A stretch of 64,000 bases of DNA, from IMG/VR virus record IMGVR_UViG_3300036715_002961, positions 1 through 64,000 of that record; one strand, written 5' to 3'. The notes beneath the pieces were generated by a model. That model was not told the origin of the DNA. It worked only from the letters and a program-made list of their open reading frames with translations, and made no database searches. The position numbers and the translations under genes are program-made. The stretch comes from a virus. Within the stretch, counting starts at the first letter, position 1. Each line of letters opens with the position of its first letter. Positions 409 through 61,582 of this stretch are shown here, one piece after another.

Positions 409-1038
409 TCAGGTCAAGTCACCGCGAGACTTGCCGAGCAGGGTTCGAAGCGCTTGGCAGCGTTCGGCTGCGACGTCGACAAGGTTATAGAACGATTTTT
501 CGACCGTTTCGAGATTGATCTCGCGCTGAATTTGCGCGCGGACCTCGTCGGGGTTCAGGATGCCCATTTGGGACTCTACGTCGGCGTCGGTGATTTGCTT
601 CGACCGCAGGCCTTCCGCCTTCTCGGTTTGAAGCGATTTGATCGCCGCTTGGCGCATCGCAGCTCGCGTAATGACGTTCTCGCGCTGCCAGATTTTCCGG
701 TGCCGGGTCGCAGTCGAGGCGAGGCGGTAGGCGTTGCGGTAATGTTTCGTCGCGGCGTTGAGAGCGGCCGCAAGGTGGCCGTATTCGAGGCGCCCGTCGG
801 CGATCGTGAGGGACGCTTCGATCGCCGCATGAATGCTGGCGATGCTCTCGGGAGAGACGACGACAGCGTCGACAATCTCGTCGGCCCACTTGGTGAAATC
901 GTCGGACTCAACCACGCCCCCAGAGAGGAACTCAGCGGCCGAGCTAGCAACGTCTGCATCGGAGACGGGAACCCGGGTTCTCGTCGCTTCGTGCGGGGGC
1001 ACGGGCGGGGAGGGGGAATCGACTGGGCGTCTGCTCAT
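409..1038 (-). CDS. Hypothetical helical protein, possibly a UvsY-like recombination mediator
   Basis: ATGA overlap with the upstream stop at 1035-1038. The helical C-terminus (KQITDADVESQM...LVDVAAERCQALRTL) loosely resembles UvsY-type proteins. Confidence 0.4.
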   Translation of the reverse strand: MSRRPVDSPSPPVPPHEATRTRVPVSDADVASSAAEFLSGGVVESDDFTKWADEIVDAVVVSPESIASIHAAIEASLTIADGRLEYGHLAAALNAATKHYRNAYRLASTATRHRKIWQRENVITRAAMRQAAIKSLQTEKAEGLRSKQITDADVESQMGILNPDEVRAQIQREINLETVEKSFYNLVDVAAERCQALRTLLGKSRGDLT

Positions 1039-1328
1039 CGACCTACCCAGAGCCAACCGCCACGCGCAAACATGCGCTGCTCCGTTTCGCCGATCGGGTC
1101 GCTGTAATCGAGGGCACTCACGAAGTGCCGACGACCTCGCCCGCTAGTGATGAATTTTTGACCGTTGTCGATGACGATCTTCGCGATGTAGCGCCAGCGG
1201 TGAAGCGCTTTGACGGGGTAAGAGGGCGACGGCGGGGTCGTCGGGGCGAAGTGCTCGCCGAATCGCTTCGCCTCTGCGCGCGACGCGATTTGAAGATGGC
1301 GCGTGAGCGGGTTTTTGCTGAGTTTCAT
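1035..1328 (-). CDS. Hypothetical protein (97 aa)
   Basis: Coupled by 4-nt overlaps to both neighbours. Confidence 0.55.
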   Translation of the reverse strand: MKLSKNPLTRHLQIASRAEAKRFGEHFAPTTPPSPSYPVKALHRWRYIAKIVIDNGQKFITSGRGRRHFVSALDYSDPIGETEQRMFARGGWLWVGR

Positions 1329-1543
1329 AGCTTTCTCGACGGGAAGGGGAATGGGATGAAAACCCAGGCGGCGCTGGCGTGAATCACGCGAATCGGCAGA
1401 TGCTCGGGGCTTAGTTGGTAGGCCCTTAGGATCGCGGGAATGGCGCTCACAGTCAGCGACGCTCGGCGTTTGAGGGATGCGTTTTCGGCTTTGAGTTCGT
1501 TATTTTCGCGAACCAGAGACTCGATCGCTTTTCGAGGGATCAT
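1325..1543 (-). CDS. Small coiled-coil hypothetical protein (72 aa)
   Basis: MIPRKAIESLVRENNELKAENASLKRR; the A of its ATG is the last A of the tmRNA CCA end. Confidence 0.55.
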   Translation of the reverse strand: MIPRKAIESLVRENNELKAENASLKRRASLTVSAIPAILRAYQLSPEHLPIRVIHASAAWVFIPFPFPSRKL

Positions 1544-1876
1544 GGTGGAGACGCCGGGAATCGAACCCGGGTCCAAAGGTTTCAGCGGCGGGTGTCGCTC
1601 ACATGTTTAGCCGCCGAGGCGGCGGGGGTTGCGCTGCGAGTTAACGCGACTCGGCGCTAGCAGGCGGTTTGATGCGCCGAGTCGTTTGGGTGCCCCTATA
1701 ACTGGCGCAACAGCGGGTATTTGGGGCCCTTCCCAGCTGTCACGGTTCAGGCCGCGATGGTCTGAACGAGGTCGTTATCGTTGGCGAATAACGGATGGTA
1801 GATTGGGTCGGCGCGGACCTACCACCGCGCACATGCAGCCCGAAACTGAGAATCTCTGTCGAAACCTTTCGTCCCC
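1543..1876 (-). ncRNA. ssrA: tmRNA (one-piece, 334 nt), tag peptide ANDNDLVQTIAA
   Basis: 5' end GGGGACGAAAGGTTTCGAC; 3' end GGACCCGGGTTCGATTCCCGGCGTCTCCACCA. Acceptor stem GGGGACG/CGTCTCC has the G3-U wobble. Pseudoknot 1 pairings GCGCGG/CCGCGC and TGGTAG/CTACCA. Tag ORF 1785-1747 ends in AA-stop. Confidence 0.97.
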
Positions 1877-2069
1877 TAAATGCTCGTCTTTCCGAGCTGT
1901 CACCGGTGGACGTTGCGAACGACAACGCTTGCTATCGCACCCGGAAATCTTCAGATCAAAAGTCGATCTCGTGGTCCGCCGAGGATGCGAAGGGGAGGAG
2001 ACTTATGCGTTCGGTTTCGGATTTGGGCGATTCGGGATCTGGTTCCATGTCAAATCGTACGTCGTTTCG

Positions 2070-4427
2070 TCAGGATTTCGATCGAAACAACGGACCAAGC
2101 TCGGCGTTTTTTGTCGCAGTCTCTTCAAGCTTGCGCGCTTTCTTCTCGGCCGCGCGCGTCTTGCCAAACTGCGTCCACATGGACGAGGACGACGGGAACG
2201 CCGCTTCGAGTAGGTGCTGCGTTGGGGGGTAGACGGTCTTTTCCCAGATGTAATGGCGGTCGACCTCGCCCACGTAGTCGGACGCGGGAACGACGACAGT
2301 AGGGTCGGCGGTCGAGTCAACGATGACGTAGGCGATGCGCGTGCCCTCGCGAACTTCCTCCCCGCGGGCGCGAAGAATTTTGGCGGCGGCGACGTGCGGC
2401 AAATCCGCAAACTTCTCCCCGTCGTTTTTCACGCGACGCGATTTCTCGTACTCGGCGAGGTCTTTTGAGAGCGTCTTCGTCATCGCGATCTCTTCGACGG
2501 GAAGCGGGTCGGCGAATACGTGCGCTTGGGACGACTCGACCAGCGAGACGTACTTGGCTACGTTTTCCTCGCCAGAGAGGACCATGTTGATGGCGGTTTC
2601 TTGGAGGCGGCGGGCGAGCTGCGTCGTGTCACCGCGCTTGTATTCGAGGCCCTTGATCTCGGGCTTCGAGTCGGCGGTCGCCCGCTTGCCCTTGTAATGG
2701 ACGTAGTTGCCGGCGTAGCGCTTCGCCGTGACGAACACGACACGATCAAACGCCTTTTCGTAGGCGAGTTTGATCGTCGAACGGTGAGCGCAACCGACGC
2801 CGCCGAGGATGCGAGGGTATAGCGTTGAGTTGCAGTGCTCGACGAACTCGCCGAAGCGCTCTTCCGAGCAGCCGACGACGAACAAAGAGTCGGTGTCGCC
2901 GTAGACCGTGTCGAGCTTCCAGCGGCGCGCCTCGGCGATCGTCGACTCAATGAGCCAGCGTCCGCATTTGGTGACTGACTCGGCGATCGCGCGAACGTAG
3001 AACCGACTGTTGGTTGTTCCGAGGACGCCGTAGAAGCTGTTGGCCGCGACCTTGTAGGCGGTCGAAATTCGGTCGTAGGATTTCCACGCGTCGGTGCCCG
3101 GAGGCTCGTTTGCCTTCTTGTCGTTGTAGACCTTTCGCATCTTGATCATCGTGCGAAGGGCTTCTGGAAGGATGCCGTCGGCGCCCACTTCGAACGTGAC
3201 TCCGTTGAGCGGGGAGCGCGCGTGGCCGGGGGCGATAGGGCCATTGACCGGCATGTCTTTGCGCGTTTCAAGGCTCATGTTCCACGTGATGATGATGCTC
3301 GGGTAGAGCGAGGCGAAGTCGGCTACGTGAACGTTGCGGAGGATGCCCATGCCCTCGGCCGGCTTCATGACGTAGGCACCCTCGTAGGGGACTTCGCCGT
3401 CACGGTACTGCGCAGTCGGGAAGTGCGTTTTGCGCTCAACCGCGAGGCGGAGCATGAACCCGTCCATTTGTTGTGTGGGCTGTAGACCGAATGTATTCGG
3501 CAACATTTGCGTGACTTGAGTCAGCGCAAAAAACAGCTCCATGTAACCGGTCTTCTCTTCGATTCGCTTGAGGAGCCGCGTATCCTGGACGTTGTAGCGA
3601 ACCATTTTCTCGCGGTCTTCACCGCCACGCTCCCAATGAGCCCACGTTTGAGACGCGTCGAAATCATCTTTCTCGCCGACGCCAAGGCTACGCGCGACGT
3701 TGTTGAGTTTCATCGACACCTTCTCGTCGCCCGACTCGGCCGCGGTGTTCATTTTGCCGAACAACAGCATATGATCGAGCCACAGCCAGCGATGCAGCTC
3801 GAAGCGACGGCGAGCGACGGTGATGTTGCGGGCCTCAATGACGGGGAAGTCGAACCCGTCGCCGTTCCACGCGACGACCAGGTCAAACCGCGCGAGAACG
3901 TCGAACATGCCCTGCAGAAGGGTCAGCTCGGCCGCGTCGGTGTCCGCTTCGAGAACTCCACACCAGTCCTCATCTGACTCGCCTGAGACGACCGCCCATG
4001 ACAGGATCCGAGCATCTTCCTTGCGCGAGAACGGCACCCTCGAATCGGTTTCGAGGTCGAGGTAGGCCACGCGGGGACGCTGGATCGAAGCGCCAGAATC
4101 GGCCAGCCAGCGACGAAGCGGGCGAACGTCGCCCTCGTACGCGTCGGTGTAGGCGAGGGGGCTTTTTTTCTCGCCGTTGCCGAAAACCATCGCGCGGCGA
4201 GCGATGTGGTCGACGAACTCTACGCGCAGCCATTCGCCCTCGACCTTGACGGACCGAACCGAGGCCGCGTCGCGAAGCTGACGCTCGTGCCCGTGCTGGA
4301 GGGAAATGCGCTTGTAAAACACCGCATAGGAGGCGGGAACCGTCGTGGTTTTGATCGCCCCGTCGGGGAGACGGGTCGCCAGAACCAGGTTTGAACCCGC
4401 CTCCCATGCGTTGACGATTTCGGTCAC
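2070..4427 (-). CDS. Family B DNA polymerase with 3'-5' exonuclease (~785 aa)
   Basis: ExoI YLDLET, ExoII VAWNGDGFDFP, ExoIII YNVQD; motif A DFASLYPSII, B KVAANSFYG, C YGDTDSLF. Probable GTG start at 4427 overlaps the upstream TGA (GTGA). Confidence 0.95.
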   Translation of the reverse strand: MTEIVNAWEAGSNLVLATRLPDGAIKTTTVPASYAVFYKRISLQHGHERQLRDAASVRSVKVEGEWLRVEFVDHIARRAMVFGNGEKKSPLAYTDAYEGDVRPLRRWLADSGASIQRPRVAYLDLETDSRVPFSRKEDARILSWAVVSGESDEDWCGVLEADTDAAELTLLQGMFDVLARFDLVVAWNGDGFDFPVIEARNITVARRRFELHRWLWLDHMLLFGKMNTAAESGDEKVSMKLNNVARSLGVGEKDDFDASQTWAHWERGGEDREKMVRYNVQDTRLLKRIEEKTGYMELFFALTQVTQMLPNTFGLQPTQQMDGFMLRLAVERKTHFPTAQYRDGEVPYEGAYVMKPAEGMGILRNVHVADFASLYPSIIITWNMSLETRKDMPVNGPIAPGHARSPLNGVTFEVGADGILPEALRTMIKMRKVYNDKKANEPPGTDAWKSYDRISTAYKVAANSFYGVLGTTNSRFYVRAIAESVTKCGRWLIESTIAEARRWKLDTVYGDTDSLFVVGCSEERFGEFVEHCNSTLYPRILGGVGCAHRSTIKLAYEKAFDRVVFVTAKRYAGNYVHYKGKRATADSKPEIKGLEYKRGDTTQLARRLQETAINMVLSGEENVAKYVSLVESSQAHVFADPLPVEEIAMTKTLSKDLAEYEKSRRVKNDGEKFADLPHVAAAKILRARGEEVREGTRIAYVIVDSTADPTVVVPASDYVGEVDRHYIWEKTVYPPTQHLLEAAFPSSSSMWTQFGKTRAAEKKARKLEETATKNAELGPLFRSKS

Positions 4428-5593
4428 GCCTCGCGGATCGGCTCCATTTCGAGCAGAAATTCCGCGTTCGGACCGAGGCGCAGGCGGAACATGATCGTCG
4501 TTCCGTTGTTGCACTCGAACATGCCCCACGGATTCTGATGAATGTCCGTCGCCAGATCCGACGATTCGCTCCGTTGGTAGAGCGGGATCTTGGTCAGGCC
4601 GGTCGGGAGAACAGTCGTGATGATCTTCGGATCGTCCGAGACCACCTGCGCCTTCTTCGGCTTCGACGGGGCCGGGGGCTCGTCGGAGGTCGATCCGTTC
4701 TGCTCGCGAACCTTCGCTTCGAGGTCCCGTTTCGAAATGCTCGCCGCTTCCGGAAGAAGATTTGCCCTCGTTTCCGGGTCCACCTTGAGCAAAATCCCCA
4801 GCTTGGTCGGGCCGACCGTCGCGATCGTCGTCGCGTCGAACGTCGTCCGAACCGAGATGACGTTGACCGCCCATTTCCCCGAAACTCCGAACTCGCTCTC
4901 GACGAAGCTGGCGAACGATTTGAACAGCGGCTTCCCCGTCTCGTCCTTGCGAAGCTTCCAAATCTGGGTTTCTTGCAGCTCTTTCAGCTCGCTGCCCAGG
5001 TGCCAGAAACTCAGATTGACGTCGCCCATGACCGAGCGAACCCGGCTGACCTTCGCTTCCAGGTCTTCCGGCGTGAACTTCGATTCCGGGCTCTCGACCG
5101 GCGGCTTGTCCCCGATGATCTGCGACTTCTTCGCCGGTTCCTCGCCCTCCCCGCACGCCGGGCAATTGTCGAACTGAATGTCCGACCGAAGGCCGCATTT
5201 CCAGCATTTCGCAAGTTCGATCTGCGGTCGGGCCGCATAGTAGGCAGCGATCAGTTTGACCAGCGCCTGCGTCGTCTTCGCCGGATCGCCCGCTGAGGCA
5301 GTCGAGGTCTCGTGGACCACGTCCAGGCTGAGCAGCTCGATGGCCAACGTCTTGACCATTTCGTGATCCATCTTCGCCGGCTTCGTCCCTACGAGCAGCG
5401 CCTTGATGTCGCCCGCCGCAATCGTCTCCGTCTGCGGCTCGGTCAGCGATTCCACCGGGATCGCGTCGACCGGCTTCGATTTCTTGGGCTTCACCTCGGC
5501 CGACTTCTTCGCCGGAGCGGACTTGGGTGCGGGCTTCTTGGTGGGGGGCGTCTTCTTGGCGGTTTTGGTGGACGCCAGATCGTTCTTTTTCAT
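4424..5593 (-). CDS. Putative DNA-binding protein: Lys/Pro-rich N-terminus, CxxC...CxxC zinc ribbon, DUF3102-like region
   Basis: Starts MKKNDLAST after AAGAAGG; CWKC...CPAC; FWHLGSELKEL...FASFVESEFGVSGKWA resembles DUF3102. Confidence 0.6.
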   Translation of the reverse strand: MKKNDLASTKTAKKTPPTKKPAPKSAPAKKSAEVKPKKSKPVDAIPVESLTEPQTETIAAGDIKALLVGTKPAKMDHEMVKTLAIELLSLDVVHETSTASAGDPAKTTQALVKLIAAYYAARPQIELAKCWKCGLRSDIQFDNCPACGEGEEPAKKSQIIGDKPPVESPESKFTPEDLEAKVSRVRSVMGDVNLSFWHLGSELKELQETQIWKLRKDETGKPLFKSFASFVESEFGVSGKWAVNVISVRTTFDATTIATVGPTKLGILLKVDPETRANLLPEAASISKRDLEAKVREQNGSTSDEPPAPSKPKKAQVVSDDPKIITTVLPTGLTKIPLYQRSESSDLATDIHQNPWGMFECNNGTTIMFRLRLGPNAEFLLEMEPIREA

Positions 5594-6005
5594 TGAAACC
5601 TTCTTTGAGCGCCGCGAACAAGGCGGCAATTTTGTGGGCAGAAACGTACTTGAGGGCATCAACGCGAGACCAGCCGACGCTGTCGAGGACGCCATAGACA
5701 GGGCCGAGGCCCGCGCGCTCGGCGATGCGCCGGGCGTCGAAGGCAAAATGGTCAGGGCTTGGAACAGAACTGCGCTCTAACGCGCCTTCGTCGTGGACCT
5801 GGACGCCAACCCAGCGACACGCGCGAAGGGCCTTGCGGTGAGCGTCCTTGACGGCGGAAACCGCCTTCAGATTGACCATCGGGGGGGATACGCGGCGGGC
5901 CGCTTCCCATCGGGCGATCAATAGGTCCTGCTCAATGTCCTGAGCTTCGACTGCGGGATCTTGGCGACGGCGAGCCATCGCCCGCGCGCGGGCGCTGATG
6001 TGCAT
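5590..6005 (-). CDS. Compact sigma-70/ECF-like ORF (region 2-like); end approximate because it has no in-frame stop before the end of PolB
   Basis: ARAMARR...AQDIEQDLLIARWEAARR...AVKDAHRK resembles sigma region 2; GAGG Shine-Dalgarno (SD) upstream. Confidence 0.45.
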
Positions 6006-7507: not shown

Positions 7508-8468
7508 GAAGAACCTCGTTGAACGCGGCGAACAGAATTTCGGAGAGCTGGGAGAGGGGGAGCGAGTCGGCGTCGGAGCCAGGGGGCATCGCCGCGCGGA
7601 CGGTTGGCCGTCCGTAGCGCGAAACGAGAACGCGAACCTTTTCGGCGAGGACGTCGCCCGCGCCGTCGGGGTCGGAGACGAGGACCAGGCGGGGCCAGGA
7701 AACGAGCTTCGTCGCGTGCTGCACGCGGATCTGGGAGCCAGCAAGGGCGGCGATCGAAACGTCGCCGAGAGCGCGCTCGACGGCCATCGCGTTGAACGCA
7801 CCCTCGGTGACGAACAGAACGTTGCGTGATGCCGGCGGGGGCCAATGACGCTCACCGAACAGGGCGCCGAGGCTCGAACCGTCCACGTCGGGCTCGGGTT
7901 CAAGGTAGCGCCGGCGGTCGCCCGTGTAGGAGCGCGCGGTGTAGCCGCCGAGGACGTTGTTCGAATCCGCGTAGGGGATCACGATCCGACCGCCGAGAGG
8001 CCCCTTCCGCGCGAACGTAATGCCCCAGCGGGCGACCTGTGCGGCCGTGACGTTGTTGCCGAACTTGTTGCGATTCAACAGATATTCGCGGATGCGCGGG
8101 GGCCACTGGTCAAGCGGCATGGGAGGCTCGACGTGGGGCGGCAGCTCGAAGATCGGCCGGCGGCGAACCTGCAACGACACGGACTCGACCTCGCGACGCG
8201 GTGCTTCGGCGTCGCCGGCGAGCCACTCGACCGCCGCGGGGTAGGTCATGCCCGGATGCAGGGCGCGGACCAGAGAGATCAGGTCGCCAGAAAATCCGCA
8301 AGGAAAGCAATGGTGCATGCCGTCCTTGTCGCCGCCGTCCTCGTCGCGGATACGCCACGACGGAGACGAATCATCGTGCGCCGGATTCGGACATAGGGCC
8401 GTCAGCTCCTTGCCGCCGCGCTTGTAGGCGATGCCCAGGCGGCTCAAAACTCGCTCAACGCGCGTCAT
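7494..8468 (-). CDS. DNA primase (CHC2-type zinc finger + TOPRIM)
   Basis: CPNPAHDDSSPS...HCFPCG; RIVIP; VTEGAFNA; DPDGAG. Confidence 0.9.
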   Translation of the reverse strand: MTRVERVLSRLGIAYKRGGKELTALCPNPAHDDSSPSWRIRDEDGGDKDGMHHCFPCGFSGDLISLVRALHPGMTYPAAVEWLAGDAEAPRREVESVSLQVRRRPIFELPPHVEPPMPLDQWPPRIREYLLNRNKFGNNVTAAQVARWGITFARKGPLGGRIVIPYADSNNVLGGYTARSYTGDRRRYLEPEPDVDGSSLGALFGERHWPPPASRNVLFVTEGAFNAMAVERALGDVSIAALAGSQIRVQHATKLVSWPRLVLVSDPDGAGDVLAEKVRVLVSRYGRPTVRAAMPPGSDADSLPLSQLSEILFAAFNEVLRAAA

Positions 8469-10066
8469 TCAAATTCTCGGCGGTTGGAGGATTTCGATGA
8501 CGACTTCGGCCGGCGGCTGCCGCCGAAACGCGGCTGCTCGGGGGCGAACTCATCGTCGACGTCGCCGGGGCGGCGGTAGGGAATGCTGCGCCCGTTCCAG
8601 ACGCGACCTTGGTCCGGGTTCCAGTCAAATTCCACGGCGAGCGGCGCAGTACCGTGGCGCTGCTTCAGGATCAGCGCTTCGAGCTTGTCGTCGGTCAACT
8701 CTTTCCAGAGGGCCGGGCGGTTGAGGCCGATCATCGTGTCGGCGACCTCGGTCCACGCGCCGCTCCCCTTGACGCCTTCGCGTGTGGGACGTTTGTCGGG
8801 GCGCTGTTCGACGTCTTTAAGCCGCTGTTGTTGCAGCATAATGATGTGGTAGCCGCCTTCCTGAGCCATGGCCTGTTGGCGGTAGAGGGCTTCTTCCTCG
8901 GCTTCGGGGGATGCGTCGACGAGGCAGCGCTTCCACAAGTCGGCGATGAAAACGTCGCAGCCGCTTTCAAGAACGTGGTCTTGGAGGATTTCGAGGTTTC
9001 GCTCGTTGGTTCGGCGAGCCTCGCCGGCGTGCCGGGAACGCTGGAACGGGTTGTCAATAAACCGAACATGGCGACCGATTTCGCGCATGCTCTCTTCGAT
9101 CCTGCGAAGATCTTTATCGCTCAGACGACCAGCGCGACACTCGGCACGCGAGAGACCGAGTTCGATGCAGGCGAGAAGTTCGAGCGACATGCCCGGCATC
9201 ATTTCCCATGCCCCGTAAAGCACGCGCCGGTTGAGACCGACGAGGCCGAGGGCTACGTTGGCCGTGAATGTCGTTTTGCCACCGCCCGAAACGGCTGTAA
9301 TAACCGTGACCTGGCCGGGCTCGGTGCCGCCCGTCATGCGAAGGATCGGCTCGCCGTTGGCGTCGACTTTCTCGTACCAGTCGAGGGATTGAATCCCGTA
9401 GCCGTAGGTTTTTCGGGATCCGCGCTCGCGCAGATCCTTCATTTGAGCCTCGACGATCTGGTCGGAATCGAGGAGCCATTTGCGGTCCTCGGCGCCGTCG
9501 AATGTCGTGTAGACAGCCTTTGCGAGCTGGCGAACTTTGGTCGGATCGGTTGAAGGGTCTTTGAGCCCTTCGATGAGCAGGGGAAGCGTGTTTTTTGCAG
9601 CGCGCACGCGCGAGACGTCCCAGAGGAGCGTGTCGACATGCCAGCTGGCGTTGCGCTCGCTGCCACGGCTCGCTTCGATCATGCTTGCGATGTGGGCAGC
9701 GACCTTCGCGCCCGCTTTGACTTCGATGGTCGCCGGGGCGAATCCGAGCTTCTGGCGATGGAGGGCGAGCAGGCATTCCCATGCCTCGCGGTTCTCGCTC
9801 GTGACGAAATGCGACGCGAGAACGCGGCGACTGGCCTGGACAAAAACGGCAGGGTCTGCAGCGCAAAATCCGATGACGTAGCCCTCGTTGGCCGCGTCGA
9901 CGGAGATGACCGTGCGTTCGGCTTTATCCGCTTTCGGAGCCGCTTTCGCGGGCTGCGGGGGCGGCGATGGCGGGTCGACGGGACCAGCCATAAAATCGGC
10001 GATAGCGGCCGGCGATGCGGGCGGTGCCGTGTCGGGGAGGGGAACCCGGGTTCTCGTGGGCTGCAT
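8465..10066 (-). CDS. DnaB-like replicative helicase
   Basis: Walker A AVSGGGKTT, Walker B FIADLW, GSGAWTEVAD, LKQRHG; adjacent to the primase. Confidence 0.9.
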   Translation of the reverse strand: MQPTRTRVPLPDTAPPASPAAIADFMAGPVDPPSPPPQPAKAAPKADKAERTVISVDAANEGYVIGFCAADPAVFVQASRRVLASHFVTSENREAWECLLALHRQKLGFAPATIEVKAGAKVAAHIASMIEASRGSERNASWHVDTLLWDVSRVRAAKNTLPLLIEGLKDPSTDPTKVRQLAKAVYTTFDGAEDRKWLLDSDQIVEAQMKDLRERGSRKTYGYGIQSLDWYEKVDANGEPILRMTGGTEPGQVTVITAVSGGGKTTFTANVALGLVGLNRRVLYGAWEMMPGMSLELLACIELGLSRAECRAGRLSDKDLRRIEESMREIGRHVRFIDNPFQRSRHAGEARRTNERNLEILQDHVLESGCDVFIADLWKRCLVDASPEAEEEALYRQQAMAQEGGYHIIMLQQQRLKDVEQRPDKRPTREGVKGSGAWTEVADTMIGLNRPALWKELTDDKLEALILKQRHGTAPLAVEFDWNPDQGRVWNGRSIPYRRPGDVDDEFAPEQPRFGGSRRPKSSSKSSNRREFE

Positions 10067-12399: not shown

Positions 12400-12439
12400 G
12401 CAAGGGTTACGTCGGTTCGGCGGATTTTCGATCGGCGGG

Positions 12440-12900
12440 CCGTGACGATTTTCGAAAATCGTCCGCCAAGGGAACCCGGGTTCTCGTCGCGGCGGGGTCC
12501 GAATCCGGCTCGCCATAAGGATCGCGCCCGCGGGATAAGGATCGCGCACCCGCGGTTCCAAATCAAAGACTCTTATTTATTATTACTAATACAAACTCAC
12601 TCAGATCCCAAAGATCCGAGAATTAAGTTCACAGATCTCTTAGCTCCGCTAAGCCTTCGGCTTAGCTCCGCCGCTTCGCCTTCGGCTCGCGACGGCAAGC
12701 TTGAACGGAGGCTTCCCCGGGGCGAGAGATCTGAAAATGCGAAACTTGCCGAGGCGGGAATGCCTGGACCGGTCGCGAGAGGAACCCGGGTTCTCGCCCC
12801 GGGGAATCAGGACTCCGAAGAATGTCCCTAAAATGCGTTTTAACGCGTCGAGCCCCCGTTAGGCTACCAGGGTAGCACACCCGTGGTAAAAGACGATTCT
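12440..12900. other. Largest non-coding region; candidate replication origin
   Basis: AT-rich core at ~12559-12640, repeated AGATC, short hairpins, bracketed by palindrome copies at 12471 and 12781; lies upstream of the replication genes. Confidence 0.5.
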
Positions 12901-12928
12901 AGGGGTCGTCTCGGCGCGGCATTTGGGG

Positions 12929-44382: not shown

Positions 44383-44478
44383 GGGCCAGAAATAGCAAAC
44401 GCCGAGCGGCGCTGTAGGCCGACTCGGCGAATGTCGTCGAAGAGGGGAACCCGGGTTCCCCTCGCGCGCGGGGGCGCG

Positions 44479-45605: not shown

Positions 45606-45693
45606 AACGGCGTCGCTCTTAGCGATCAATCGCCATCGGGCAAAGGAAAACCGAAGTTCACTCCGAAATCGAAAGCAAATTCCGGCAACTCGC

Positions 45694-46407: not shown

Positions 46408-46424
46408 GAGGTGAGCTTAGCGCA

Positions 46425-46853: not shown

Positions 46854-46856
46854 GAT

Positions 46857-48293: not shown

Positions 48294-48294
48294 T

Positions 48295-51476: not shown

Positions 51477-51528
51477 GGGCTGGATGATACTCGACGGGAA
51501 CCCGGGTTCCCGTCGAGCGGGGGCGATT

Positions 51529-51831
51529 TCAGTCGACGCAGCGGACCGTGCCGCAGCTCCGAACCGCGGCGCGAGTAGGCGCAGCGGCGAGGCATTCGGG
51601 CTTGAGGTCGATATGCGTGTTCGCACGGGCGCGAGCGCATACCTGGTAGCAGGTCAAACCCGCGTCGACTGGCGCTAATTCGGGGCAACCGAGGGCGCGC
51701 AGGTTGTCGCAGGCTCGCGCGCAGATAGCGCTAGGGCGCGCGTCTACCTCGTCGGGGGGCGAGGATGGCGAGCCGGCGCACGCGACGAGCAGAAAGGCGA
51801 CCAGGGGGATCGAATCGAAGAGGCGCTTCAT
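51529..51831 (-). CDS. Cys-rich lipoprotein
   Basis: MKRLFDSIPLVAFLLVAC lipobox; eight further Cys residues; ATGA-coupled to the protease. Confidence 0.7.
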   Translation of the reverse strand: MKRLFDSIPLVAFLLVACAGSPSSPPDEVDARPSAICARACDNLRALGCPELAPVDAGLTCYQVCARARANTHIDLKPECLAAAPTRAAVRSCGTVRCVD

Positions 51832-52607
51832 GGGGCGACCTGTACCACGTAGAGATCGCAAGTTCCGGGGTCGAGGATCCGGGCCTCGTCGAACCATACG
51901 AACCCGCCGTCGGCCCACTGGTCACCCCACGAATTGAGGATCCGGAAACGCGTGCCGTTGGCGTCGGTTTCGTAGCCAACGCACGCGAGCATGTGCCGGC
52001 CGAGTTCTTCACCGTCGAAGGCTCCGATGGGCTTTTTGCCGGTCGCGTCCTCGAATGCCTGGTCGACGCGGATCGCGAAAATGACCGGGTAGCCACGCGA
52101 GAGGGCGTGGCGCATTTCATCGACGCGAGTGCGGCCGACCGAATCGATCCGGTACCAGGCGGGGAGACTCGCGGCGCCGCCGGCTTGTAGGACGTCCATG
52201 GGCAGCGGTTCGAGGACGCGCTCGGCGTAGTCGGCGTCGAACGGCCAAACTCGCTCAGGCGGGACGCCGAAGTCGCGAACGGCGCGAAACAGCGTCCGCG
52301 CGGCGGTCCCCTCGTCGACCAGCGGTTCGGAGGCGGGCTTGTCGTAGAGGCGGGCGAGGGCGTAGAGCGCGAGGGCGGATGCCTCGGATCGGAATGCGCC
52401 AAGGCGGCGAAGGCGGACGTCGATCGCCGCAGCGGTGGCCTGGCCGACGCACGACGACGAGCCGAGCTGGTCGCGAACGCGCGCGACGTAGGGGGTCAAA
52501 TCGGCGCGCGCGGGGAGGAACACGAACGCGCCGAAATGAGCGCGGGTTGAGGGGGAATCGTCGGGGGAGTCGTCGATGATGTGGCCGTAGCCGCGTTTGA
52601 TGTTCAC
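51828..52607 (-). CDS. Papain-like (C1) cysteine peptidase
   Basis: DQLGSSSC, GRHMLACVGY, ILNSWGDQWADGGF. Confidence 0.9.
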   Translation of the reverse strand: MNIKRGYGHIIDDSPDDSPSTRAHFGAFVFLPARADLTPYVARVRDQLGSSSCVGQATAAAIDVRLRRLGAFRSEASALALYALARLYDKPASEPLVDEGTAARTLFRAVRDFGVPPERVWPFDADYAERVLEPLPMDVLQAGGAASLPAWYRIDSVGRTRVDEMRHALSRGYPVIFAIRVDQAFEDATGKKPIGAFDGEELGRHMLACVGYETDANGTRFRILNSWGDQWADGGFVWFDEARILDPGTCDLYVVQVAP

Positions 52608-52627: not shown

Positions 52628-53398
52628 CTACGTCGCGAACCGATTTAGGCGGACTTCGGCGTGCCCCCCCTTTCGGGGTTTCATGTGGGAAACGAGGTCG
52701 GGGAAGCGAGCGACCAGATCGTCTGCCGCCGCCCTTGAGGTCTCGTGAGAGCGACCGAATGCCATGCAGCCGCCAGCCTCGACGCGGGCGCGGTTTTTTG
52801 GAGCCAGGTCGTTGAAGCGAACCACGGCGCGATCGTCGAGCCAGTAGAAGATGGTGCGCTCAATGTCGTCTTTGACGGGGACGGTCAAGCGATGCCGGCG
52901 GTCGTTGACGATTCCGTGCAAGGTTCCGATGATCGAGCGAAGGTCGAACGTCACGCCGCCGCCCATGAAATAGGGATTGAATAGCGGATACAGGCCCCAG
53001 ATCCGCGCGCGGGCGGCCGCACATACTTCGAACCCGGCATTGAAGACGCCGACCAGGTCGTTGACCTTCGAGAACGCGTTCGAGTTCTTTTCCGGGGATG
53101 CATAGACGGAATCGACGTCGTCGTCGCTTTGAACGATGAGGGCGCCATCTGGGAAGTAGTCGGTGATGAAGTTCCTTTGAGCCGTGAGCCCTTTCACGCC
53201 GACGACGAGTAGCCCATAGGAGTCCCGCGGGACGGCACACGCGTAGGCCGCGCGCTCCGCTTCGTCAGCGACAAAGATGTAAATGCGCTCGCGCTCGACA
53301 CCGCCCGCGCGAAGGGTTTGGAGGGCGCGACAGTCGATCAGGCTCGCGCGTTGGTAGCTCGGAATCGCCACTACCCAGTCAGTCGGATCGGAAATCAT
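52628..53398 (-). CDS. TET-associated GT-A glycosyltransferase
   Basis: AIPSYQRA, QRNFITDYF, QSDDDV (DxD), KDDIERT, GGC. Confidence 0.8.
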   Translation of the reverse strand: MISDPTDWVVAIPSYQRASLIDCRALQTLRAGGVERERIYIFVADEAERAAYACAVPRDSYGLLVVGVKGLTAQRNFITDYFPDGALIVQSDDDVDSVYASPEKNSNAFSKVNDLVGVFNAGFEVCAAARARIWGLYPLFNPYFMGGGVTFDLRSIIGTLHGIVNDRRHRLTVPVKDDIERTIFYWLDDRAVVRFNDLAPKNRARVEAGGCMAFGRSHETSRAAADDLVARFPDLVSHMKPRKGGHAEVRLNRFAT

Positions 53399-54069
53399 TG
53401 GAGGATCCCTCGTACAAGCCAGAATGCTTCCGCGGCCGCTTCCCCGACCTCTTCGCCTCGCGTTTCCGCCCATCGACGTACGCGGTCGACCGTGAGCCAG
53501 GTTCCCGGTCGGGCGAACTGGCTCTCGTAAGCAGCGCACGCGGCGAGCTTCGCGGATAGGTCGGCCGGCGAGAGCGGGAACAGGAACTTGCCGCCGGGAA
53601 GCTCGGGGGCGGGCCATACCGCCGCGTACGGGTATTCGTAGAGGGCGAGCATGACGCCGATGGTCGCCTCGCGCGGGCGTAGGGCCGCGAGAGTCGCGCG
53701 ATAGACGGCCTGGTGGTCTTGGTGGTGAGAGGCGTAGGCGACGAAAATTGACGTCGGGCGGAACTCGTCGATCCGGGCGTCAATCGACCCGACTAGATCG
53801 CGCTGGGCGACCATGTCGAGGCGCGATTGACGGTCGAGGCCCGCGGGGACGATGGCCCAGTCCTCTTCGGCTAGACCGAGGGCGCGCATGGAGGCGCGGA
53901 CCTCGTCGAGCGTTTGAACGGCACGACGCACGGGAGTCTCCCCGAAACTCAGGAAATCGACGCAACATTGCTTCCCTGCGCGCGTTTTGGCGGCGAGAAG
54001 GCCGCCGCAACCGAGCGCTTCGTCGTCGGCGTGGGGGGCGAGAACCAAGATCCGATCATCCCATCTCAT
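53395..54069 (-). CDS. PIG-L/LmbE family N-deacetylase
   Basis: VLAPHADDEALGCGG, HHQDH, K...YESQ, AEAF. Confidence 0.9.
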   Translation of the reverse strand: MRWDDRILVLAPHADDEALGCGGLLAAKTRAGKQCCVDFLSFGETPVRRAVQTLDEVRASMRALGLAEEDWAIVPAGLDRQSRLDMVAQRDLVGSIDARIDEFRPTSIFVAYASHHQDHQAVYRATLAALRPREATIGVMLALYEYPYAAVWPAPELPGGKFLFPLSPADLSAKLAACAAYESQFARPGTWLTVDRVRRWAETRGEEVGEAAAEAFWLVRGILQ

Positions 54070-54971
54070 TCGCCGATCTCCAGTGATTGACCGTCGCGTA
54101 GTTCCTTGAGCCGTTCGTTCGGATCGACGCAATCGAGCATCTTTTCGCGCATGTAATAGACGACGGAAATCCGTTCTGCGTCCTCGGATTCCGAGACCAT
54201 GTCGGTGACACCGTGCCACTCGTGCGAGTTGAAAAACAGCACGTCTCCATCTTGGAGATCGACCGCGACACCGTATTCAGGGAATCCGAGAAGCGCGCCC
54301 GTGTACTTGCCCCGGCGGACCATGGAGATCACGCCGAATCCGTCTTTGAAGTCGCCTTTGTCCGTGTGGGTTCCGCTCGGCGCCGTGTTGTTGTTGACGG
54401 TCAGTGTCGTGAAGGGCGTCCCGGAAATGACGAACTCGGAGCGACAACGATCGCAGGCGGTGAGCTGGGCCTTGTAGCGGCTCGGCGAGGTCCGCTTGAA
54501 GAGGTCCGCGACGTGCGTGATCATCGGCATGATCGTCTGCCACTTTTCAGGCTCTTGCGCATTGAACGAGGTCTCGCGGCAGAACGGGAATCGGCCGCCT
54601 TGGCGATCGAAGTATCCGATGATTGCGGACGCAACAGCCACGAGGTGTCCGTTGGCATCACGCGTCTCTGTGTTTTTGCCAACGGTTCCATCCGCGAATA
54701 CTTTACGGGGACGTTTGGCACCCGCATATGCACCGCGATTCGTCGATTTCCGCTTACGTAGATCGTGGAGGGCGGGGTAAGCGCCATCGGTCAGCTCGAC
54801 GGGGATGGCCCTACGACGGAGCATCAGCAATGGCGCTCCGTCGGGCTTATAAACGTCCGCATCGCCGGTGAGCAGAACGGGGAGGTCGGAGGCCGAAAGC
54901 AGCTTACCGGCGAATACAGACGCACCGCCGGCGACGCGAGAGCGGAGTTGAAGCACGGGGACGGCGGTCAT
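54066..54971 (-). CDS. TET/JBP family 2OG-Fe(II) 5-methylpyrimidine dioxygenase
   Basis: PFTTLTVN, HTDKGD (HxD), GDVLFFNSHEWHGVT, RISVVYYMREKM. Confidence 0.88.
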   Translation of the reverse strand: MTAVPVLQLRSRVAGGASVFAGKLLSASDLPVLLTGDADVYKPDGAPLLMLRRRAIPVELTDGAYPALHDLRKRKSTNRGAYAGAKRPRKVFADGTVGKNTETRDANGHLVAVASAIIGYFDRQGGRFPFCRETSFNAQEPEKWQTIMPMITHVADLFKRTSPSRYKAQLTACDRCRSEFVISGTPFTTLTVNNNTAPSGTHTDKGDFKDGFGVISMVRRGKYTGALLGFPEYGVAVDLQDGDVLFFNSHEWHGVTDMVSESEDAERISVVYYMREKMLDCVDPNERLKELRDGQSLEIGE

Positions 54972-55591
54972 TGGATCGCCTTTCGAAGCGCCGCAAGGAC
55001 GGTTTGAGAGAGGTCGGTCGTTTGGAGCTTCGCCGCGGCGCGCTTCGCGAGGGCGATGAACTCGGTGTGTTCCGGTTTTTGGAACAGAACCGAAACCAGG
55101 TTGACCGTGGTCTTGGCGGGGTCGAGTGAGACAGCTGGGAACCCGGGTTCCCTCGCGGGCGCGGGGACGTCGACGGGAATTTCGGGGATCCCCAGCTCAA
55201 GAAAAAATTCGTCGCCGTCGATGGGGACCTCCATGCCGTCGAGCATCGCGCGCAACAGAGCCGGATCGAACGCGCCGCGCTTCGCGTTGAGTTTGATCGT
55301 CAACGCTTTCGCCTGCACTTCGGTCAGGTCGTGCAGCTCGACGACTGGGCCGACGAGGAAACCGAGTTCCCGGGCGGCGCGCCATCGGTGCTCGCCGTCG
55401 ATGATGAGATCGCGGCGCTCGCCGGTCTCGTCGGTAGCCCAAACGAGCAGGGCCTGGGAGGCGATCCATCCGTCGTTGCGGAGGCCGTGAACAAGCGCGG
55501 CGCGCTCGCGCGCGCTCATGCGGTTGGGGTTCCATGGGTTCGGATTGAGCGAGAGAAGCGGCAGATTTTTGGCGGGTTGCATCGGTTTCAC
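54968..55591 (-). CDS. ParB-like protein (ParB/Srx domain + possible RHH-like C-terminus)
   Basis: PNPWNPNRM, IIDGEHRW, LNAKRG. Confidence 0.85.
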   Translation of the reverse strand: MKPMQPAKNLPLLSLNPNPWNPNRMSARERAALVHGLRNDGWIASQALLVWATDETGERRDLIIDGEHRWRAARELGFLVGPVVELHDLTEVQAKALTIKLNAKRGAFDPALLRAMLDGMEVPIDGDEFFLELGIPEIPVDVPAPAREPGFPAVSLDPAKTTVNLVSVLFQKPEHTEFIALAKRAAAKLQTTDLSQTVLAALRKAIQ

Positions 55592-56250
55592 GTGTCACCT
55601 ACGACGAGCTTGAGGGCCGAGAGGATGGTTTCGGGGACGGGGCGGCCGGCGATCAACGCGCGGAACTCGGCGTGCTCGGGGACGTCGAAAAACAGCTGCA
55701 CGTTGACGACGGCGGGCCGGGTCGACTGATGATCTTCGCCGACGGCGAACACAGGCGCGGCGGCGCCAATGGAGCTTTCCTCAGCCTGGATTTCCAGGGG
55801 CGCGACGGCGAGCATTTGCATGAGGCTCTCGCGCTCGATGCCAAGGTCGAGGCCGAGATCTTCGGATCCGAGGGCGAACTGAATCTCGCGAACAAGCGCT
55901 TCGAGACTCTCGCGTTTGAAGGTCCCGCGCTTCGAGTTGAGCTTGATCGTGAGCTTCTTTGCGTCGTTTTCGGAGAGGCCTTCGAGGCGGACGATCGGCC
56001 CTTCAACGATGCCGAGGCCGGTCGCCGCGCGCCATCGGTGCTCGCCGTCGATGATGAGATCGCGGCGCTCGCCGGTGGCGTCCGTGCTCCAAACGAGCAG
56101 GGCCTGGGAGGCGATCCAACCGTCGTTGCGAAGGCCAGCTTCGAGGCTCTCGCGCTCGAACTCGGTCATGCGGTTAGGGTTCCACGGGTTCGGCCGGAAC
56201 TGGTCGAGCAGTTCGTTCTGGCAGTTGCCGATGATTTTCTGGGTCGTCAT
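55588..56250 (-). CDS. ParB-like protein, paralogue
   Basis: PNPWNPNRM, IIDGEHRW, LNSKRG. Confidence 0.85.
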   Translation of the reverse strand: MTTQKIIGNCQNELLDQFRPNPWNPNRMTEFERESLEAGLRNDGWIASQALLVWSTDATGERRDLIIDGEHRWRAATGLGIVEGPIVRLEGLSENDAKKLTIKLNSKRGTFKRESLEALVREIQFALGSEDLGLDLGIERESLMQMLAVAPLEIQAEESSIGAAAPVFAVGEDHQSTRPAVVNVQLFFDVPEHAEFRALIAGRPVPETILSALKLVVGDT

Positions 56251-59628: not shown

Positions 59629-59650
59629 CGGAAGGCGAAAGGCGCGACTG

Positions 59651-60592
59651 TCAGGGCTCGAACTGAACTGGCACAACGGCCTTGGAGGCAAGGTCGCAAA
59701 TATCAACGCGAATAAGACGGCTATCGTGTCGGAAGTGCTCCCGCAACTTTTTGAGTTTTGCGAGGGCCGCTTGCATCGTCGGATAGGTAGTGGCGACCGA
59801 GCCGACTTCGTCGCCCTCGGCGAACTCGTCGCCGAAACGACACGCGCCATACGCGTCACTCACGACCACGATAAACCCTTCAGATTGACGGATGAACGTA
59901 CGGCTCAGATACGAGTTGATCGCAGTCGTGCGAGCAGCATCTTCGTGAGCCGCGCGAAACGCGCGCGAATACTCGCCTGGGAGGGGGGCGCTAATGATCT
60001 TCGAGACGTCGACCGAATCACTCTTGGGTTCGGGCTCTTTGGGGAGCTGCACCTTCAAACGCGCGATGTGGCTTAGGTTTGCCTCGCGCTCGCGACGAAG
60101 ATTGCAAGCGGCTTCGTGCTCCTTCAAACGCGCGATCTCGATCTCGTCGAGGCGGTTGATCGCCAACTTGGTCTGCACGACCAGCGCGGCGTTTGCATCG
60201 TGCAGCTCTTTGCGGGCAGCGGCCGCCTCGGCGCTAGCTGCTTCGCCGACACTGGCCAGGGGTCGAAGATCGGCGAGTTGCTTGGTCAGGTCGTTGATCT
60301 TCGCTTCGTAGTCGGCGCGCTGGCGGGCGGCGCTGTCGAACAGGCTGGCGATTTCGTCCGCCTGGTTCCGGTTGTCCTCATCCAGGCCGGCAACCGTCTT
60401 TTCGAGCTGCTCGATGCGAGCGTTCTGGGCCACGACGCGCTTTTCGTCCTCGGCCACGAGAGCCGATTCGACGCGAGCCTTGAGCGCCTGGATTCGTTCG
60501 TTGAGGTCGGCGACCGCCTTGTCGAGGGGGTCGCGGGCGAGGGTTTCTTGGCAGAGGATAGAGGCGACGATGGTGGTCAAAAATCGGAGCAT
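59651..60592 (-). CDS. Long coiled-coil hypothetical protein
   Basis: Heptad-rich for ~180 aa, with a globular C-terminus. Confidence 0.6.
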   Translation of the reverse strand: MLRFLTTIVASILCQETLARDPLDKAVADLNERIQALKARVESALVAEDEKRVVAQNARIEQLEKTVAGLDEDNRNQADEIASLFDSAARQRADYEAKINDLTKQLADLRPLASVGEAASAEAAAARKELHDANAALVVQTKLAINRLDEIEIARLKEHEAACNLRREREANLSHIARLKVQLPKEPEPKSDSVDVSKIISAPLPGEYSRAFRAAHEDAARTTAINSYLSRTFIRQSEGFIVVVSDAYGACRFGDEFAEGDEVGSVATTYPTMQAALAKLKKLREHFRHDSRLIRVDICDLASKAVVPVQFEP

Positions 60593-61260
60593 TAGCGGGC
60601 TTTCGTGGGCGACGATGGCTGCGGGGAATCGACGATCGCCGGTTGGTCTTTGGAGTGTCCAGGGGGGAGAAAATGACGGGAGCCGGTGCGCCCGGCGCGG
60701 TAAGCGGCGGCAAGGTCGAGGACACGGGAACCACCGAACAGGCCGAGGACTGCCGCGGCAATTTCACTGTCTTCCTTGACGGAGACGTCGACGTTGATCG
60801 GGGCGTAGGCGCCGATCAACTTGTGCAGCTGGTCGCGCGCCTGGCTCTCGGCGAGGAACGACGGGCGCTGGACGACGACCGTGGAGCCGTCCTCGGCCTT
60901 GCGCGTGACACCGTTTTTCGCGCGGCGGATCTGGTCCTGGACGCCGCGAAGGGCGACTGCGCGGTGTTTGACGATCCGCGTCTCCATTTCCTGAACCCAA
61001 GTCGCTTCGATCCGGTCGATCAGTACCAACGCCCGCGCGCGAGAGATGAAGGGGAGTTTGCCGCTTTGGGCGAGGCCTTGGACCTGTCGGGCGACCTGCT
61101 CCCGCGAAAGGGCGTTGGTCAACAGCTCTTCGATCGTCGCGACGTGGATCTTCGTGTCGGCGATCGTGTATTTCTGGGTTACGAGGCCGCGGTTCTCGGC
61201 GCTCATGCGCTGGCTAGGCGTGAGACCGGCGGGCGAGCGGGCGGTTTTGGGGCGGGGCAT
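60592..61260 (-). CDS. Putative terminase small subunit
   Basis: Starts MPRPKT; HTH-like LSREQVARQV; ARDQLHKLIGAYAP; upstream of the large terminase. Confidence 0.55.
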   Translation of the reverse strand: MPRPKTARSPAGLTPSQRMSAENRGLVTQKYTIADTKIHVATIEELLTNALSREQVARQVQGLAQSGKLPFISRARALVLIDRIEATWVQEMETRIVKHRAVALRGVQDQIRRAKNGVTRKAEDGSTVVVQRPSFLAESQARDQLHKLIGAYAPINVDVSVKEDSEIAAAVLGLFGGSRVLDLAAAYRAGRTGSRHFLPPGHSKDQPAIVDSPQPSSPTKAR

Positions 61261-61270
61261 CAAAACGACG

Positions 61271-61582
61271 TTAAACTGCATGCCAGGGGGCCGCAAGCAT
61301 GGACGGGAACCCAGGTTCTCGTCCGCGGGACGCCTGGAGAAAGGCGCCGAGGCGCCGAGCGGCGGCGCGGATCGCCTCACGACGCCCCGCAAACGCGTCG
61401 ATCGCCCGGTTGAGGCGCAGCGAATCGGGAACCGGGCGCGCGCCCGCGAGCGCCGCGCGACGCTCCCATTCTTGAAGATGCTCGCAAAATGCTAGCTCGG
61501 CCCAACGGTCGACGATGCCGCGAGGGCGGCGAGCGTCGCCGACACGGGCGATCCACCGCCAACGCTGCACTGAGCGCTTCAC
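61271..61582 (-). CDS. Hypothetical protein
   Basis: GTG start with GTGA overlap. Confidence 0.4.
   Translation of the reverse strand: MKRSVQRWRWIARVGDARRPRGIVDRWAELAFCEHLQEWERRAALAGARPVPDSLRLNRAIDAFAGRREAIRAAARRLGAFLQASRGREPGFPSMLAAPWHAV

Follow-up and report, generated by a model that had tools for sequence, protein, structure and literature searches.

An evenly spaced array of short palindromes in an uncultivated phage genome: a putative protein site on duplex DNA associated with a sigma factor and replication-recombination gene module

The virus record IMGVR_UViG_3300036715_002961 of the IMG/VR database (88,800 bp, 63.5% G+C, rated 95% complete; hereafter G000) carries a short palindromic word, GGAACCCGGGTTC, dispersed between and inside its genes. 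We analyzed this word in the window (the whole stretch formed by bases 1-64000 of the record), in the entire record and in related phage contigs. Genes were predicted with our own codon-usage-based caller, not with a standard program, and all assignments of sites to coding or intergenic DNA rest on these calls. By this caller, 120 of 123 G000 genes are located on the minus strand. Two microbial-mat DNA sequencing runs contain the window stretch, as contigs.

The initial annotation of the window reported 13 exact copies of GGAACCCGGGTTC on the plus strand and two one-mismatch variants (at 41462 and 61306), and our recount agreed. When one mismatch was allowed on both strands of the window, 29 matches were detected, whereas 100 dinucleotide-preserving shuffles averaged 0.16 matches and none had more than 2. 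One further match with a single mismatch, at 1563, belongs to the T-arm of a tmRNA gene and does not count among the sites; this phage-borne tmRNA gene is complete (1543-1876, minus strand, tag ANDNDLVQTIAA) and was called by both ARAGORN and Rfam (RF00023, 85 bits). In the whole record, the palindromic 12-mer core occurred in 20 exact copies and the reversed word, used as a control, in none. The annotation had also called for a comparison with a high-order Markov background; models of orders 0 to 5 predicted 0.010-0.35 copies in G000, and the order-5 estimate is conservative because that model was trained on the motif copies too. With two variants added to the exact copies, G000 has 22 sites, found along the entire record. 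Those in the window are listed below, with no strand assigned; the lines not marked as variants are the 13 exact copies, each starting at its first coordinate.

968-980: asymmetric class; intergenic, 54 nucleotides past the stop of gene 1035-1328, with the GTG start of gene 409-915 another 53 nucleotides on.
10041-10053: asymmetric class, in a coding sequence; 13 nucleotides past the ATG (10066, with an AGGAG box upstream) of the DnaB-like gene 8465-10066.
12471-12483: asymmetric class; in the gap 12400-12928, 72 nucleotides upstream of the SF2 helicase gene 10885-12399.
12781-12793: asymmetric class; in the same gap 12400-12928, 135 nucleotides past the stop of gene 12929-13165.
17024-17037: symmetric 14-mer; 76 nucleotides past the stop at 17113 and 35 nucleotides before the start at 16989, overlapped by a weak 58-residue open reading frame.
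24247-24260: symmetric 14-mer, in a coding sequence; in a gap-rich variable linker (GGNPGSRG) of the 401-residue gene 24058-25263, as judged by alignment with four orthologues.
31365-31378: in the 18-bp palindrome 31363-31380; 11 nucleotides past the stop of gene 31389-32156 and 50 nucleotides before the start at 31315.
36203-36215: asymmetric class; 8 nucleotides past the stop of gene 36224-37048, with a separate terminator next to it at 36196-36173 (minus strand).
38545-38557: asymmetric class; abuts the stop of gene 38557-39585.
41462-41475: one-mismatch variant (central C to T) whose flanks keep four symmetric pairs; in a weak 87-residue open reading frame between gene 41576-42811 and the portal gene.
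44446-44459: in the 22-bp palindrome 44442-44463; 20 nucleotides past the stop at 44479 and 64 nucleotides before the start at 44382.
48565-48577: asymmetric class (C before the core on the coding strand), in a coding sequence; 271 nucleotides before the end of the 539-residue open reading frame 48295-49914.
51497-51510: in the 28-bp palindrome 51490-51517; 19 nucleotides past the stop at 51529 and 72 nucleotides before the start at 51425.
55138-55151: symmetric 14-mer, in a coding sequence; in a variable linker (REPGF) of the ParB_N gene 54968-55582.
61306-61318: one-mismatch variant, asymmetric class; 25 nucleotides upstream of the ATG (61281) of gene 60592-61281.

The three longer palindromes in this list were found as annotated. 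That about half of the copies lie in coding sequences was an overestimate: copies inside genes do occur, but only 4 of the 15 window sites are clearly coding (10041, 24247, 48565 and 55138), with three ambiguous (17024, 41462 and 61306) and eight intergenic. In the entire record, 12 of 22 sites are intergenic compared with 8.5% non-coding DNA (P = 4e-8); the centres of eight lie within 35 nucleotides of a stop codon and those of six more than 100 nucleotides inside a coding sequence. Coding sites occupy protein tails and variable linkers, such as codons 5-9 of the DnaB-like helicase and the linkers of the 401-residue gene and of a ParB_N protein. The same preference was observed when eight genomes, including the relatives described below, were pooled: 72 of 131 sites were intergenic (vs 5-18% non-coding DNA), 68 were within 35 nucleotides of a stop (vs about 10% expected) and 22 were more than 100 nucleotides inside genes. 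The sites are also spaced more evenly than expected by chance. The coefficient of variation of the gaps in G000 is 0.58 compared with 0.94 for chance (P = 0.004), and in four complete genomes it is 0.50-0.60 compared with about 0.93 for random placement (P = 0.0002-0.009), at an average density of about one site per 4 kb. The view of the word as a genome-wide array thus extends from the window to the full record.

Aligned on the coding strand, the 22 G000 sites give the logo G A N G R [GAACCCGGGTTC] C Y N T S, in which symmetric conservation is seen at positions 2, 4 and 5 of the flanks and no base is conserved past position 5. Position 3 is free (C12/A7/G3 on one side and C9/G8/T4/A1 on the other), with Watson-Crick pairing in 6 of 20 sites. 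All 22 sites have C immediately after the core, and the base before the core varies (11 G, 10 A and 1 C). The 11 asymmetric copies therefore share a single orientation (two-sided P = 0.001). Eight of these are in the window, where their common orientation had been noticed in the annotation. This orientation could be functional, or it could result from strand-biased C-to-T pressure, with which the constant GC skew is likewise in keeping.

In IMG/VR, the 14-mer was detected in 70 stretches, and five contigs had many copies. The 12-mer occurred 21 times in 98 kb of G001, 16 times in 72 kb of G002, 17 times in 51 kb of G003, 7 times in 21 kb of G004 and 8 times in 18 kb of G005, with no copy of the reversed word in any of these. 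These are distant relatives: DNA matches are confined to patches (66-73% identity), and protein identity is about 25-57%. G000 is syntenic with G001, and protein identity between the two is 24-57%. In all five contigs, the invariant 14-mer is extended by symmetric flanks specific to the genome into a perfect palindrome: CTGG...CCAG in G001, GGACG...CGTCC in G002, G003 and G005, and GACCG...CGGTC in G004. Eight alignments of at least 90 bp (G002, G003 and G005) span a site. In six of them the core and nearly all of the 22-mer are kept, with the surrounding sequence 68-79% identical, and in the other two only one of the genomes has the site, with the length unchanged in one of these cases (G003, 47117). 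Between G000 and G001, most sites are at different junctions at the same density, as read from site and gene tables. Megablast of window positions 1-25000 against 50,697 phage records gave no match. In the literature, the exact 12-mer was found only in an unrelated mouse microRNA paper, and a keyword search found no relevant report of conserved palindromes in phage genomes.

Other relatives have other words. Among 14 contigs related by the major capsid protein (50-60% identity) that lack the 14-mer, several have a dispersed palindrome of their own, including the complete genomes G006 (99.9 kb, 26 copies of CCCAAACCCGGGTTTGGG) and G007 (99.6 kb, 14 copies of the 12-mer centre of TTCGAAAAGCGCTTTTCGAA). 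No dispersed palindrome was found in G008 (72.8 kb). A PolB alignment search yielded 79 loci, 40 of them close, which were classed as with, without or ambiguous for a palindrome by a count threshold on pieces of 4-23 kb. At least 20 of the 40 close loci have a repeated perfect palindrome of 16-24 bp, with centres that include ATCGAT, CTCGAG, GTCGAC, CACGTG, GGCGCC, CCGCGG and GCGCGC. When half-sites were read outward from the dyad, 23 of 25 started with G and 13 of 25 had TT at positions 4-5; the genomes are related, and these shared features represent family likeness, not 25 independent events. The G+C content of the relatives, with their different words, ranges from 0.49 to 0.71.

Some site positions recur across different words. 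Among 24 palindrome-bearing PolB loci, in which recurrence was judged by gene family and distance (only the small open reading frame between Mre11 and Rad50 was aligned), sites lie near the PolB 3' end or in the gap between PolB and the 168-residue gene in 11 loci, about 390 nucleotides into the sigma gene in five loci with three different words, upstream of the SF2 helicase, and 64-121 nucleotides into the small open reading frame. All 20 aligned orthologues of the latter have a MARRK-like N-terminal start and a conserved C-terminal region of 100 residues. In six of the 20, the variable N-terminal linker between the conserved parts contains the palindrome of that genome, read as TGTRVP (G000), TEPGFR (G002), GNPGFQ, PNPGLG, LELEFQ or TDDRSS; orthologues without a site have a shorter linker. 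G000 and G002 have the same 12-mer in the same place in different reading frames. The different frames at a homologous linker, and a word that stays exact in spite of the protein divergence noted above, bear out the suggestion that selection acts on the DNA and not on the protein.

The array is associated with a gene module composed of a sigma factor of ~220 residues, a protein of ~390 residues, PolB, a 168-residue helical protein, a zinc-ribbon protein of ~450 residues, a RecA-like protein, Mre11, the small open reading frame, Rad50, DnaB, DnaG and the SF2 helicase. In the 40 close PolB loci, the cluster of sigma factor and 390-residue protein was present in 22 of 22 palindrome-bearing loci, in 1 of 11 without (this locus, L258, was later found to carry a palindrome) and in 6 of 8 ambiguous loci. 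The corresponding numbers for Mre11/Rad50 were 21 of 22, 1 of 11 and 7 of 8. G008 shares the virion genes and has neither the module nor a palindrome. The two features of G000 most relevant to a possible reader of the sites are as follows.

4424-5593, minus strand: candidate reader (a lead only), a 389-residue protein with a zinc ribbon, a long low-complexity linker, a helix-turn-helix-like middle part and a beta-rich end.
5594-6005, minus strand: sigma-factor-like open reading frame adjoining the candidate, with a weak match to Sigma70_r2 (E 0.02).

Sigma70_r2 was above the cut-off in three of six ~220-residue sigma genes tested from relatives. The sigma factor and the 390-residue protein are fused in L240 and L251 (one protein of 729 or 509 residues), which is why a single protein cluster contains both, and in other relatives the sigma factor is a separate gene of ~220 residues just upstream of the ~390-residue gene. 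The sigma-like frame of G000 is not closed by its own stop codon and continues through the 389-residue gene in the frame of PolB; this layout could reflect a frameshift, an assembly error or a fusion. Matches of the 390-residue family to known domains were weak: among 24 members, five matched DUF3102 (best E 0.026) and one matched HTH_ParB (E 8.4e-4). An ESM Atlas query with this family gave a lead only. Its search against a set of 5.8 billion proteins returned 1 hit (in an unsuitable length band) and 10 hits, none with a Pfam domain, and searches of PDB sequences with two profiles gave no firm reader.

ParB-like genes are also present. G000 has three ParB_N genes, and G001, G002, G006 and G007 have at least one each. 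In the five genomes searched, no HTH_ParB match exceeded the cut-off; a single weak match occurred in G001, in another open reading frame than the ParB_N genes. The one ParA-type ATPase model tried (PF13614) matched in none of the five genomes, whereas the control gave a match in 14 of 14. Canonical ParABS was rejected on these two results. At window positions 52628-56250 (minus strand), a TET-associated glycosyltransferase (PF20691), a Tet_JBP dioxygenase (PF12851, 94.8 bits) and two ParB_N paralogues lie in a row. An orthologous pair is present in G007, and PF12851 was found in G000 and G007 only, being absent from the complete array-bearing genomes G001 and G006. The G000 layout matches that of ParB-dependent phage T-dioxygenases as described in PMC13229309, where the TET-associated ParBs are activators devoid of a DNA-binding domain and are active on DNA of E. 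coli and lambda. Just beside this cluster, at 51828-52607 (minus strand), is a gene with a papain-family cysteine protease domain (PF00112, E 1.3e-7) that is conserved in G001 and G007. Outside the window, G000 encodes an MT-A70 DNA methyltransferase and the third ParB_N protein (77975-78547 and 81303-81881), and a RecA-like gene, Mre11 and Rad50/SbcC are found at 82.6-87.2 kb. The two ends of the record (window 3-347; 87482-88528) match one and the same G007 gene, which indicates that the record is complete, circularly permuted or circular, and cut inside the ~450-residue zinc-ribbon gene.

Several simple functions of the word were considered and rejected. In the 20-kb stretch scanned for U-tract terminators (30001-50000), none of six sites was flagged, whereas two canonical coding-strand terminators were. 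These, a hairpin plus T-run each, lie at 36196-36173 and 34217-34189 (minus strand) and flank the major capsid gene region; the first begins 8 nucleotides after the site at 36203. Such separate terminators indicate that the phage uses ordinary terminators beside the palindromes. Nor does the word appear to follow a general promoter rule in G000, as none of nine leaderless-type starts had a site within 60 bp upstream, these promoters being predictions. The same was true for the predicted leaderless-type starts of G001 (0 of 6) and G007 (0 of 8). By eye, the site at 51497 shows a GGAAC-N16-TATCAT-N7-ATG geometry. In G006, six of ten promoter-like words have a site centre 11-19 bp upstream at variable spacing (P = 3e-14, for predicted promoters). 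These words are ten coding-strand copies of GGCGG(C/T)ATAAGG (G006 comprises loci L222-L226; examples are at oriented positions 33707, 76931 and 81276), and in six copies an ATG follows 6-8 nucleotides later, suggesting leaderless starts; the word may be the promoter of the phage sigma factor. A link to restriction was rejected as well: away from the sites, the central CCCGGG is not underrepresented (ratio 0.73-0.95, rank 15-36 of 64). Separately, G000 avoids GAGCTC (0 seen, 38.5 expected) and CTCGAG (2 seen, 60.7 expected), and so does G007 (2 vs 67.8 and 1 vs 53.5, respectively), a pattern resembling evasion of host restriction enzymes with these specificities. Five genomes gave no tyrosine integrase, serine integrases and repressors not having been searched; the array is not tied to temperate life.

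From these data we infer that the word is a duplex-DNA site of a dimeric, most likely phage-encoded protein, and that the even array serves the transcription or replication-recombination module, a reading to which we assign a probability of roughly 0.45. The putative site would consist of the core GGAACCCGGGTTCC and of partly read symmetric flanks (GA-N-G-R / C-Y-N-T-S in G000). The phage would keep about one such site per 4 kb wherever the coding sequence tolerates it, in the gap after a stop or in a variable linker, and bound dimers would form evenly spread marks over the whole chromosome. Most likely, the array provides distributed entry or anchor points for the phage transcription or replication-recombination machinery, since it travels with the sigma/390-residue/PolB/DnaB/DnaG/RecA-like/Mre11/Rad50 module rather than with the genes of the virion. 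Individual promoters are probably not what it acts on.

A number of observations weigh against this interpretation. The reader protein has been elusive: Pfam or PHROGs searches with about 68 G000 open reading frames gave no firm candidate, the G000 copy of the 390-residue protein has no family match, HTH_ParB was not found in G000, and all module genes co-occur with the array, so presence and absence cannot single out one of them. Likewise, convincing co-variation with the half-site was seen for no protein family and for no 12-residue window (the highest partial r, 0.53, came from a 10-member family), and the 390-residue protein as a whole gave a partial r of 0.18 against half-site distance. 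The reader may also be encoded by the host. Point mutation does not readily account for a concerted change, between lineages, of a reader together with about 20 sites, and the orientation bias of 11 of 11 copies in G000 is unexpected for a symmetric dimer. Finally, the perfect 20-22-bp palindromes of relatives give predicted hairpins with mean energies of -13 to -17 kcal/mol (G001, G002, G003 and G006); in G007 the mean is -10.2 kcal/mol, compared with -6 to -9 for random 32-mers. Such stable predicted hairpins leave room for a structural role of the palindromes in these relatives.

This last point leads to an alternative that we regard as unlikely, in which the palindromes work as nucleic-acid structures, that is, hairpins in mRNA or single-stranded DNA, or cruciforms, and not as protein sites. 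They would then be terminators without a U-tract, stabilizers or processing sites of RNA 3' ends, or substrates of the phage Mre11/Rad50 nuclease. Consistent with such roles are the large share of sites next to stop codons in the pooled genomes, palindromes that overlap the stop codon itself in G002 and G007, the co-occurrence of Mre11/Rad50 with the array in all but one of the 22 loci, and the hairpin energies of the four relatives just given, against about -8 to -9 for random sequence. In phage T7, RNase III processing sites lie between cistrons, and their density resembles the one site per 4 kb seen here in a one-strand genome. In G000, however, the stem is not maintained outside the core. 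Only a minority of sites pair at position 3, as noted above, and predicted folding energies of 32-nucleotide windows range from -1.9 to -24.2 kcal/mol with a mean of -10.0 (random 32-mers, -6.8 +/- 3.7), 7 of 20 sites folding no better than the random mean. Flank positions 1-5 on the coding strand of six genomes contain 22 G.T and 25 A.C pairs, which gives no strand-specific hairpin signal. In every palindrome family, self-complementarity extends through the centre, although a hairpin loop would not require this; the later searches sought perfect palindromes, and unbiased k-mer counts gave the same families. The absence of T-runs at the six sites scanned, with canonical terminators located apart from sites, and the 22 pooled sites deep inside genes also argue against structure, and in G001, G003 and G007 a ribosome-binding site and start follow 15-35 nucleotides after a site, leaving no room for a promoter. 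A two-fold site on duplex DNA is the best reading of the free position 3, the varied energies and the lack of strand bias. The initial annotation had left open protein loading, a cruciform, or a packaging or ejection signal; selection at the DNA level, a genome-wide array and a protein site on duplex DNA remain from that proposal. The cruciform or hairpin as the working form in G000 was not supported by pairing and energies, and a packaging or ejection signal is at odds with G008, which shares the virion module yet has no such palindrome.

The remaining alternatives concern the origin and the reader of the word. If the array were an address code that phage lineages can rewrite, its sites would serve as start or loading points of replication and recombination and not as gene regulators. 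Site positions would be inherited (in the linker of the small open reading frame and, by gene position only, in the sigma linker, at the PolB 3' end and in the gap before the SF2 helicase gene), whereas in sister lineages all of the roughly 20 words of a genome would have been exchanged jointly for a new palindrome of 16-24 bp. The evenly spaced marks would in that case work as many small origins or as entry sites for recombination. This idea requires either active copy-correction, in which a single template is used to overwrite all sites, or a reader that readily changes its specificity, and we consider it quite unlikely. A self-propagating or concertedly evolving palindrome of the REP or MITE kind, of no service to the phage, appears slightly less probable still. 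It would account for copies that are uniform within a genome and differ between genomes, for the preference for extragenic spots just after stops, for the longer linker of site-bearing small-frame orthologues, and for sites that one relative has and another lacks at the corresponding place. On the other hand, no Y1/RAYT transposase (PF01797, E <= 1) was found in five genomes, with the control found in 10 of 14 genomes, and no tyrosine integrase; selfish spread does not predict spacing more even than random. Moreover, six of eight orthologous sites keep the core in surroundings that have diverged by 21-32%, one gain or loss (that at G003 47117) left the length unchanged, and the exact 14-mer has been kept across lineages with the divergent proteins described above. 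We find it very improbable that the word is the site of a host protein or a generic host repeat carried into the phage. Different words in relatives of different G+C content could track different hosts, and the failure to find a phage-encoded reader fits this possibility, but the array tracks a phage gene module, and G000 and G007 have unrelated palindromes while sharing GAGCTC/CTCGAG avoidance. As weaker evidence, among the genome-contig 16-mer matches listed (80 of at least 120) each had one site, except for two sites 45 bp apart, and no prophage-like hit was among them. The GAAC-N4-GTTC shape resembles the Gram-positive LexA box, and the word may also resemble the ECF-sigma -35 element; both are leads only, and neither likeness is shared by the other palindromes of relatives. 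The least probable explanation is that the sites load phage ParB-like proteins which, with or without the TET dioxygenase, spread to mark or modify DNA. The dispersed palindromic KorB operators of plasmid RK2, of similar density, offer an analogy, and ParB_N genes occur in G000, G001, G002, G006 and G007. A protein with a ParB-like domain is encoded by the Cluster O phages too, whose array is similar (PMC4351075). However, the ParB_N proteins here lack a detectable helix-turn-helix, the G000 copies are closest to those of G007, whose palindrome is unrelated, G008 has a ParB_N gene and no palindrome, and no ParA was found. A companion idea, in which the sites are read by the TET-linked ParB pair, was not supported, as TET is absent from array-bearing G001 and G006; besides, the published TET-associated ParBs have no DNA-binding domain and work on DNA without such sites (PMC13229309).

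Returning to the preferred reading of an array of protein sites on duplex DNA, some known systems are similar in part. In plasmid RK2, the KorB operators (OB) are short palindromes, roughly one per 5 kb, at which a dimeric protein acts globally. Unlike KorB and ParB systems, the array described here belongs to a virulent phage and has sites in genes, with no protein that combines ParB_N with a helix-turn-helix and no ParA found. Cluster A phages have stoperators, twenty to thirty-odd copies of a short word, often at gene junctions, that are read by a phage protein. One short word in 20-odd copies over a phage genome is common to both, and stoperators are also described in the discussion of PMC4351075. 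They were rejected as an explanation, being asymmetric, oriented with transcription and bound by the immunity repressor of a temperate phage, whereas the core here is dyad-symmetric and the five genomes showed no tyrosine integrase. REP/RAYT elements were rejected too: no Y1 transposase was found (0 of 5), and the palindromes are perfect and in part deep in genes (22 of 131), whereas REPs are strictly extragenic and imperfect.

The closest parallel is found in the Cluster O mycobacteriophages, Corndog and its relatives. As reported by Cresawn et al. 2015 (PMC4351075), these have a 17-bp dyad repeat with 34 copies in Corndog, of which 14 are intergenic, 10 at gene starts and 10 in genes, mostly not at promoters; the word is absent from the host genome, and no integrase is present. 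A DNA-binding protein acting as a dimer was predicted by the authors, who did not settle on a function (PMC4351075). In both cases, tens of near-invariant dyad copies lie between and inside genes over a genome of roughly 70-100 kb. The Cluster O repeat has 7-bp arms and three free bases, whereas the G000 word is unrelated and has no spacer, and the phage lineage and gene module are different; the likeness is of kind, not of sequence, and we use the term "dispersed dyad-repeat array" for a descriptive class, not a homology family. By analogy, the G000 array appears to belong to an already published, still unexplained kind. Such palindrome arrays have been in print since 2015 without explanation, and the same design is now seen in an unrelated and widespread group of uncultivated phages from microbial-mat, soil and wastewater metagenomes. 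If the reader is found, it would represent a family of orthogonal protein-site pairs with 16-24-bp specificity and would answer how a virulent phage marks or organizes its whole chromosome; at least 12 different cognate words from related phages provide a ready specificity matrix for a binding screen. The Cluster O phages are too similar to each other to show conservation or word replacement (PMC4351075). The phages analyzed here go beyond them in the even spacing of sites, in conservation in very distant relatives and in the occurrence of other palindromes at partly the same gene positions. Mechanisms proposed for arrays of this kind are thereby constrained by even spacing, by selection on duplex DNA, by the link to a sigma/PolB/recombination module, and by words that change while some of their positions stay.

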